In this document: positions 44,591 through 47,500 of the stretch, in pieces
Numbering within the stretch: position 1 is the stretch's first letter
Layout of the letters: each line of letters begins with the position of its first letter
Origin: Escherichia coli
GTDB taxonomy: Bacteria > Pseudomonadota > Gammaproteobacteria > Enterobacterales > Enterobacteriaceae
Direction: 5' to 3' (one strand)
Length of the DNA: 64,000 nucleotides
Assembly (NCBI RefSeq): GCF_030013205.1
Contig: NZ_CP122648.1
Position numbers: made by a program

Positions 44591-47500
44591 TGACACTAAC
44601 GCCCGCACATTGCTGCGGGCTTTTTGATTCATTTCGCAAATGTGCTGACATTTTCCCCTCTAATCCGTACCATACACGCCACTGTTTTTATATCAGATTT
44701 CTTATGCTGGGCATTCCGGCATGACGCATACTCTTCTGATGCCATATAACGAATTGAGTCGCTTTTAAATGTCGCAAAATCAAGAAATTAGTAAGAAAGA
44801 ACAATACAACCTGAACAAATTACAAAAACGTCTGCGTCGTAACGTGGGCGAAGCCATTGCTGACTTCAATATGATTGAAGAAGGCGATCGTATCATGGTT
44901 TGCCTCTCAGGGGGTAAAGACAGCTATACCATGCTGGAGATTCTGCGCAATTTGCAGCAAAGCGCGCCAATCAATTTTTCGCTGGTGGCTGTTAACCTCG
45001 ATCAAAAGCAACCGGGCTTCCCGGAACACGTTCTGCCCGAGTATCTTGAAAAGCTGGGCGTTGAGTACAAGATTGTTGAAGAGAACACTTACGGTATCGT
45101 GAAAGAGAAGATTCCAGAGGGCAAAACCACTTGCTCACTGTGTTCTCGTCTTCGTCGCGGTATCCTTTATCGTACCGCAACGGAACTGGGAGCGACGAAG
45201 ATCGCGCTGGGTCACCATCGTGACGATATCCTGCAAACGTTGTTCTTAAATATGTTCTACGGCGGCAAGATGAAAGGTATGCCTCCGAAACTGATGAGCG
45301 ATGATGGCAAACATATCGTGATTCGCCCGCTGGCCTACTGCCGCGAGAAAGATATTCAGCGCTTTGCCGATGCAAAAGCGTTCCCGATTATTCCGTGCAA
45401 CCTGTGCGGTTCACAGCCTAACCTGCAACGTCAGGTGATTGCTGACATGTTGCGTGACTGGGATAAACGTTATCCGGGGCGTATCGAGACGATGTTCAGC
45501 GCGATGCAGAATGTGGTGCCGTCGCATCTGTGCGATACCAACCTGTTCGATTTCAAAGGCATTACCCACGGTTCTGAAGTGGTTAACGGGGGTGATCTGG
45601 CGTTTGATCGCGAAGAGATCCCTCTACAACCGGCGGGTTGGCAGCCTGAAGAAGATGAAAATCAGTTGGATGAGTTACGACTGAATGTGGTTGAAGTGAA
45701 ATAACCCGGATAGCGCCCGATGCGCAAGCTTACCGGGCTACTCTTATGGAGGCCGGATAAGACGCGGCCAGCGTCGCATCCGGCAATCCCGAAGAAGATG
45801 TTGACTCTTGCACCCTGCGATTCAACATTTCATTATTTTAATAACCGCACCCGGCACGTTTTTCCTTTAATCTTCCCGCCCTGTAACTGTTTCCATGCTT
45901 TATGAGCAACAGCCTGACGCACCGCGACATAGACATGCGCCGGATGCACGGCGATTTTGCCAATATCTGCGCCATCAAGCCCAATATCTCCTGTCAGCGC
46001 ACCTAATACATCACCCGGGCGCATTTTGGCTTTTTTCCCGCCATCGATACATAACGTTGCCATTTCGGCTTCCAGCGGCACAATGGAACTATTAACTGGC
46101 GGCGTTTGCCAGTTAAGTTTTATCTGCAACATGTCAGAAATGATATTGGCCCGCTGTGCTTCTTCCGGGGCACAGAAACTGATCGCCAGACCGCTATTTC
46201 CTGCACGCGCTGTACGACCGATGCGATGTACATGAACTTCAGGGTCCCACGCCAGCTCAAAGTTCACCACCAGCTCAAGCGATTTAATATCCAGACCTCG
46301 CGCAGCAACATCAGTCGCAACCAGTACACGGGCGCTACCGTTAGCAAAACGTACCAGGGTCTGATCGCGATCACGTTGCTCCAGATCGCCGTGTAACGAC
46401 ATTGCACTTTGCCCTACTTCATTCAGCGCGTCGCAGACAGCCTGGCAATCTTTTTTGGTATTGCAAAACACCACGCAAGAGGATGGCTGATGCAAACTTA
46501 ATAACCGTTGCAACAACGGAATTTTGCCTTTGCTGGATGTCTCATAAAATTGTTGTTCAATAGGTGGCAGAGCATCTGTTGAGTCAATTTCAATCGCTAA
46601 AGGATCGCGTTGCACTCGTCCGCTGATTGCGGCGATGGCTTCCGGCCAGGTTGCCGAAAACAGAAGCGTCTGTCGAGATGCTGGCGCAAAACGGATGACA
46701 TCATCAATGGCGTCGCTAAATCCCATATCCAGCATGCGGTCGGCCTCATCCATCACCAGCGTATTCAACGCATCCAGTGATACCGTGCCTTTTTGCAGAT
46801 GATCCAACAAACGGCCCGGCGTTGCCACGATAATATGCGGCGCATGTTGCAACGAATCACGCTGCATACCGAACGGTTGACCACCGCACAACGTCAAAAT
46901 TTTGGTATTTGGCAGAAAACGCGCCAGCCGACGCAATTCACCTGCCACCTGATCCGCCAGTTCACGCGTAGGACACAGCACTAAAGCCTGGGTTTGAAAT
47001 AGCGACGCATCAATTTGCTGTAACAAGCCGAGGCCAAAAGCCGCCGTTTTGCCGCTGCCGGTTTTCGCCTGCACGCGAACATCTTTTCCGGCAAGGATCG
47101 CCGGAAGCGCGGCGGCCTGCACCGGCGTCATGGTTAAATAACCCAACTCATTAAGGTTCGTGAGTTGGGCGGGAGGCAAAACATTCAGGGTAGAAAAAGC
47201 GGTCACAATCTATTCTCGTGGTCATCGACGCAAAGTTAGCAGGCGCGTATCCTCGCAGATCTACGCTCACGATGCGACAATTTAATCGGTTCTTCATCGG
47301 GTGGTGGGTCAGGCATGGGTTGCGGGCGAGGGATCGGATCGGGCACTGGAACAGGATCGCCAGGAATCGGTTCAGGGACAGGAATTTGCAAATAAATAAG
47401 TGTCGTCATATTTCCCTCCGGTCATTGGGTGGACTCTTAAAGGGTAGACGCTGATAAATAACAGGCAAAAAAAAGCCGACTCATCAAAGTCGGCGTCGTA

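Follow-up and report, generated by a model that had tools for sequence, protein, structure and literature searches.

An Escherichia coli chromosome with an intact native ttcA gene and an unoccupied attachment site for Rac-type prophages

The junction between uspF and ttcA in the Escherichia coli chromosome studied here (NCBI RefSeq assembly GCF_030013205.1, contig NZ_CP122648.1) represents the unoccupied attB (bacterial attachment site) of lambdoid prophages of the Rac type. The site is located in the 5' end of a ttcA gene which is intact and native. In the following, the window denotes the whole stretch of DNA that was analyzed, with a length of 64,000 nucleotides, and positions without further specification refer to it. 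The probability of this reading is about 0.96, and the finding is structural in nature and does not rest on a statistical signal. The flanks known from K-12 meet in a shared core of 26 bp and the encoded protein carries the N-terminus described as TtcA', so that the interpretation of the junction as an empty attB, which had been given in an earlier note on this DNA, was upheld.

The left flank of the attachment region is formed by uspF (44159..44593, plus strand), which encodes the universal stress protein F with 144 codons. The gene comprises 435 nt (ATG at 44159, stop ending at 44593), has the same length in K-12 and was assigned by its ORF, the collinearity with K-12 uspF (b1376) and the RefSeq annotation of the chromosome of strain ETEC4079. 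On the same strand it is followed by a native spacer of 175 bp (44594..44768), the equivalent of the 176-bp spacer between uspF and ttcC' in K-12, to which it is nearly identical in the alignment with the exception of one indel in a T-run and a few SNPs. The full-length ttcA gene for the tRNA 2-thiocytidine(32) synthetase (RefSeq WP_000081418.1) extends from 44769 to 45704 on the plus strand and comprises 311 codons plus the stop. Its right neighbor dbpA, encoding an ATP-dependent RNA helicase, is located on the minus strand (45833..47206; assigned by ORF, synteny with K-12 b1343 and RefSeq annotation) and is convergent with ttcA. The order of uspF, a gap of 175 bp, a ttcA of 311 codons and dbpA had been read from the sequence before, and all of these coordinates hold according to the ORF list and the sequence. 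The earlier statement that integrase, recombination and kil genes are missing was likewise borne out: between uspF and ttcA no integrase, excisionase, recombination, kil or other prophage genes were found in the ORF list, the sequence or the ETEC4079 annotation. The spacer contains no ORF of note, and a search of the whole window at Rfam gathering thresholds gave no RNA element within it. The convergent intergenic region of ttcA and dbpA (45705..45832) harbors a REP-like palindromic element (gccggataagacgcggccagcgtcgcatccggc).

Within the spacer, two elements on the plus strand were noted. A consensus scan yielded, as a pattern match, an intrinsic-terminator-like hairpin downstream of uspF (44601..44630), which reads GCCCGCACATTGCTGCGGGC and then TTTTTGATTC, with the hairpin at 44601..44620 followed by a T-run, and which may serve as the terminator of uspF. 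The consensus scan also gave a sigma-70 promoter candidate with CTGACA and TACCAT separated by 17 nt (44645..44673). With 9/12 matches it is no better than the shuffled expectation for this region, and it is a weak candidate for what might be the native ttcA promoter. The candidate is located on the bacterial arm and is hence parted from ttcA in Rac lysogens.

Comparison with the annotated record of K-12 MG1655 places the junction on the known map. There, dbpA and ttcA (1411013..1411948) are followed by intR, xisR, rcbA, ralR, recT, recE, racC, kilR, sieB, and racR, and the far part of Rac consists of trkG, stfR, tfaR, pinR, ynaE, and ynaM, followed by ttcC', uspF, ompN, micC, and ydbK. The feature annotated as "cryptic prophage Rac" (1411899..1434958) covers the first 50 nt of ttcA, and ttcC' is a pseudogene of 51 bp (1434958..1435008). 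This annotation matches the map given in the earlier note, namely a Rac prophage of ~23 kb between ttcA and uspF with a pseudogenic ttcA fragment at the far junction. In the phage arm near intR a surrogate start of ttcA is found, consisting of an ATG and eight further codons; it lies 51 bp downstream of intR, with which it shares its orientation. When the whole window was compared with ~110 kb of K-12 by blastn, as had been suggested in the form of an alignment against a K-12 reference, synteny was observed on both sides with ~98% identity and scattered strain SNPs, while the Rac interval (K-12 1411942..1434958, 23 kb) is precisely missing and its flanks abut. The only other DNA in the window which is foreign to K-12 consists of an IS1 element and an efflux/AraC island of 3.6 kb, neither of which is phage DNA.

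This island (50749..54347) is inserted between smrA and mcaS/abgR and was considered as a relocated phage remnant. That interpretation was rejected, as the island is not phage-related: its genes specify an AraC-family regulator (53568..54383), a HlyD-family protein (52443..53474) and, split into two ORFs by a frameshift, an efflux permease of the DHA2 MFS type (50933..52446). Two further differences concern DNA that is present in K-12. The ydbA autotransporter pseudogene region (K-12 1465063..1474004, ~8.9 kb including IS2 and IS30) is missing and represented by ~13 bp between paaY and pdxI (13930..13942), and the IS5 copy between ynaI and ynaJ (IS5F) is missing at ~62963..62966, where the flanks overlap by 4 bp, consistent with an unoccupied IS5 target.

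To the left of uspF the window contains ydbK/nifJ (38222..41746), micC (41767..41882, minus strand), an IS1 and ompN (starting at 42885). Only three hits at the Rfam gathering level were obtained in the window, the sRNAs FnrS (47471..47588, minus strand), McaS (54454..54549, plus strand) and MicC (41767..41882, minus strand), all in their expected syntenic positions. The IS1 copy of 768 bp (41885..42652) is bordered by a 9-bp target duplication, TAACCCGCG, at 41876..41884 and 42653..42661. Its insertion site is located 5 bp upstream of the MicC +1 (micC 41767..41879/41882, minus strand), between micC and the -10 region and in the upstream region of the divergent ompN, so that the element probably uncouples micC from its promoter. 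The insertion is also present in ETEC4079 and K_EC180; EC556, EC571, and EC581, identical in other respects, match over only 97% in two pieces, which is consistent with its absence there. The ompN gene (42885..44018) carries a premature stop at 43941..43943 (GAA to TAA, codon 353 of 377), so that the C-terminal beta-strand region is lost. In the ETEC4079 record, which is identical here, RefSeq lists ompN as a pseudogene with the remark "internal stop".

The breakpoints of the comparison with K-12 define the attachment site to the base. In the blastn analysis, positions 42653..44818 correspond to K-12 1437124..1434959, covering ompN, uspF, and ttcC' and ending at the base that immediately precedes Rac, and positions 44776..50748 correspond to K-12 1411941..1405969, i.e., ttcA and the sequence beyond it. 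The overlap of both matches is confined to 44776..44818 and constitutes the attachment homology. A three-way alignment of the window with the K-12 uspF-ttcC'-Rac end and the K-12 intR-ttcA junction, followed by a base-by-base check, delimited the attB core as a block of 26 bp, AAGAAAGAACAATACAACCTGAACAA, on the plus strand at 44793..44818, which covers codons 9-17 of ttcA. All 26 bases are identical to both the attL and the attR copy of K-12, and the block occurs as a single copy in the window when up to three mismatches are allowed, with none expected by chance. To the left of the core the window corresponds to the uspF-side junction, and to the right to ttcA of K-12. The native 5' end of the gene (44769..44818, plus strand), which in K-12 remains at the distal junction of Rac as the pseudogene ttcC', is identical to ttcC' at 50 of 50 positions, whereas the 5' end supplied to K-12 ttcA by the phage differs from the window at seven of the first 24 nt. 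The attB thus lies within the interval 44594-44900 proposed in the earlier note; the crossover site, however, falls inside ttcA codons 9-17 and not in the 175-bp spacer.

A closer position of the crossover is suggested by the phage Rac-SA53. Its GenBank record includes the flanking host ttcA and therefore effectively represents an attL junction. The same 26 positions are labeled "attP" there (KU052037.1 722..747) and read AAGAAAGAGATATACAACCTGAACAA. The three mismatches to the core of K-12 and the window all fall in the 5' part of the block (GAGATA vs GAACAA region), which is why the crossover probably takes place within the 3' 15 bp of the core (44804..44818). The Rac-SA53 block results in a third N-terminal variant of TtcA, MQENQKNTKKEIYNL. 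A literature search on Rac-SA53 retrieved no relevant paper.

The junction is also visible in the encoded protein. TtcA of the window is identical to K-12 TtcA at 306 of 311 residues (98%), and four of the five differences are located at residues 2, 3, 6, and 8, with the N-terminus reading MSQNQEIS in the window and MQENQQIT, the phage-supplied version, in K-12. The fifth difference is G290 in place of C290. The PP-loop motif SGGKDS (47-52) and the motifs CSLC (122-125) and CNLC (210-213) are intact, and the protein was named TtcA by PGAP. Excision of Rac from K-12 BW25113 (delta-rac) alters four N-terminal residues of TtcA and gives rise to TtcA', a change caused by the imperfect match of attL and attR (Liu et al., 2015, Sci Rep 5:16074, PMC4632033). 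According to the same study, Rac in K-12 is still proficient in excision, and TtcA' is also the form present in strains of E. coli and Shigella that lack a rac-like prophage; the authors regard it as the ancient copy. Given the TtcA' N-terminus and the junction, the window therefore displays exactly the published empty-site state, and an empty Rac site combined with TtcA' is an already known and ordinary configuration.

Temperate phages which integrate at the end of a host gene duplicate the displaced end and in this way keep the host gene functional. Rac-type phages encode IntR, a tyrosine integrase, and the excisionase XisR, and their recombination proceeds via a short block of identity that covers codons 9-17 of ttcA, with IntR, annotated as a tyrosine-type recombinase, as the putative catalyst of a conservative exchange in the core. 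The phage brings its own substitute for the first ~8 codons of ttcA beside the identity block, and upon integration the gene stays open with four N-terminal residues swapped. Its native upstream region would be replaced by phage DNA located downstream of intR, and the original 5' end is left beside uspF as the ttcC' fragment. In lysogens ttcA may then be transcribed by read-through from intR. In the window, such an integration has either not occurred or been exactly reversed, with the native spacer, the 5' end and the N-terminus being joined to the ttcA body via a single intact core.

The presence or absence of a Rac-type element at ttcA is a common polymorphism. Of 5426 complete E. coli genomes, 2487 (46%) contain the 1.7-kb junction in one piece, whereas it is split in ~2923 others, and DNA resembling K-12 intR/xisR was detected in 2919 of the 5426 genomes (~54%). 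The totals of 2923 and 2919 are almost complementary to the 2487 contiguous junctions, which indicates, on the basis of a comparison of genome totals, that nearly every occupied ttcA site holds an IntR-type element. With a query of 24 kb around the junction, matches of 100% identity in one piece were obtained in the pig ETEC chromosomes of ETEC4079 (NZ_CP122643.1, Belgium, faeces) and K_EC180. The RefSeq annotation of ETEC4079 lists nifJ, IS1, ompN (pseudogene, internal stop), uspF, ttcA, and dbpA and no phage genes. For the detection of Rac markers a chimeric megablast query was used, in which the junction (2.6 kb) was combined with intR/xisR, recT, and racR on the opposite strand; this search covers four marker genes on chromosomes at ~85% identity or more. 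In the six chromosomes with a junction of 100% identity (K_EC180, ETEC4079, EC556, EC571, EC581, and ETEC4068) megablast gave no match for intR/xisR, recT, or racR, and the junction was the single matching place. Among the genomes whose ttcA site is empty, a few (e.g., NZ_CP116067.1 and NZ_CM149870.1) showed a second matching place for the marker set, and homologs of recT and racR can therefore reside in prophages integrated elsewhere.

How the empty site came about was considered with regard to these data. The earlier note had described the strain as naturally Rac-free or cured, and the absence of Rac stands, as it is missing at ttcA and the four Rac markers were not matched by megablast in the chromosomes with 100% identity. 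The two alternatives, however, cannot be separated by the sequence alone, because site-specific excision is conservative and restores attB without leaving a scar. An ancestral state, i.e., a lineage without any past Rac-type prophage at ttcA, is the rather probable origin: the TtcA' N-terminus together with the native spacer corresponds to the ancient form (PMC4632033), the empty state is found in 46% of the complete genomes, and the six pig ETEC chromosomes with 100% identity are all empty and devoid of intR/xisR, recT, and racR in the megablast search. Against this it has to be considered that a precise excision would leave an identical sequence, and that the lists of matches were ranked by contiguous coverage, so that close relatives with an occupied site fall below the top. 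Precisely such an excision of an ancestral Rac or Rac-like phage by IntR and XisR, regenerating attB and TtcA', is a conceivable though less probable history of the site. Excision of Rac in K-12 yields exactly this type of junction and N-terminus (PMC4632033), and with Rac-type modules in ~54% of the genomes gain and loss must be frequent; nevertheless, no positive trace in the form of a scar, a hybrid N-terminus, a phage remnant or Rac markers elsewhere in the matching chromosomes was observed.

We therefore lean modestly toward a site that was never occupied in the recent history of the lineage, because neither a hybrid N-terminus nor a remnant is present, the Rac markers are absent in the matching chromosomes and TtcA' is seen as ancestral (PMC4632033). 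It is unlikely that the pig ETEC lineage was cured only recently, with IntR/XisR excision restoring the TtcA' N-terminus and the native upstream region of ttcA; if true, the functional switch of TtcA by excision, which Liu et al. described in the laboratory, would have a counterpart in nature. An imprecise or homologous deletion of the prophage is highly improbable and contradicted by the alignment, and the same holds for a site occupied by a degraded remnant or by some other small element. The flanks are intact to the base, the spacer differs from the K-12 uspF-ttcC' sequence only by one indel and a few SNPs, the 5' end of ttcA is of the bacterial type at all seven discriminating nucleotides, and no extra DNA is located between uspF and ttcA.

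Regarding its consequences, the preferred reading of an empty attB means that the strain possesses a native, non-chimeric ttcA allele with its own upstream region and is devoid of the Rac-borne functions recET, kilR, ralR/ralA, trkG, and racR at the ttcA locus. An intact landing site is available to Rac-like lambdoid phages, which are sometimes still infective, and judging from its intact core copy it should be usable by them. Beyond the annotation, the significance of the finding is small.

Compared with known systems, the site most closely resembles the delta-rac attB of Liu et al. (2015), with which it shares the locus, the same four-residue difference of TtcA from Rac-bearing K-12 and a sequence composed of the ttcC' 5' end, the core and the ttcA body. 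In contrast to that laboratory-induced attB, the empty site in the window is natural and belongs to a pig ETEC lineage. With the Rac site of K-12 MG1655 it has the 26-bp core and the flanks ttcA/dbpA and uspF/ompN in common, but the window is devoid of the 23-kb prophage from intR to ynaM and its ttcA has its own 5' end and upstream region. The Rac variant of REL606, Rac-SA53 (KU052037), and vB_EcoS-683R6 use the same ttcA site with IntR/XisR modules which are 96-99% identical to that of K-12 (96% for the int-xis module of Rac-SA53); they represent occupied sites or phage genomes as opposed to the empty site of the window. Sp10 and CP-933R of O157:H7 are further Rac-like elements at ttcA (PMC4632033). 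In REL606 (NC_012967.1 1409170..1426012) intR, xisR, rcbA, ralR, recT, recE, racC, kilR, sieB, trkG, and pinR are located between ttcA and uspF. This variant is shorter (~17 kb) and contains essD, a lysozyme gene and a gene for a lysis protein where K-12 has racR and ydaS-ydaW. Strains of the B lineage, which had been suggested as Rac-free E. coli for comparison, are therefore unsuitable for this purpose. Other prophages which replace the end of a host gene follow the same general principle of a phage-supplied end; with Rac, integration takes place in a protein-coding gene and at its 5' end, and it therefore changes both the N-terminus and the upstream control region.
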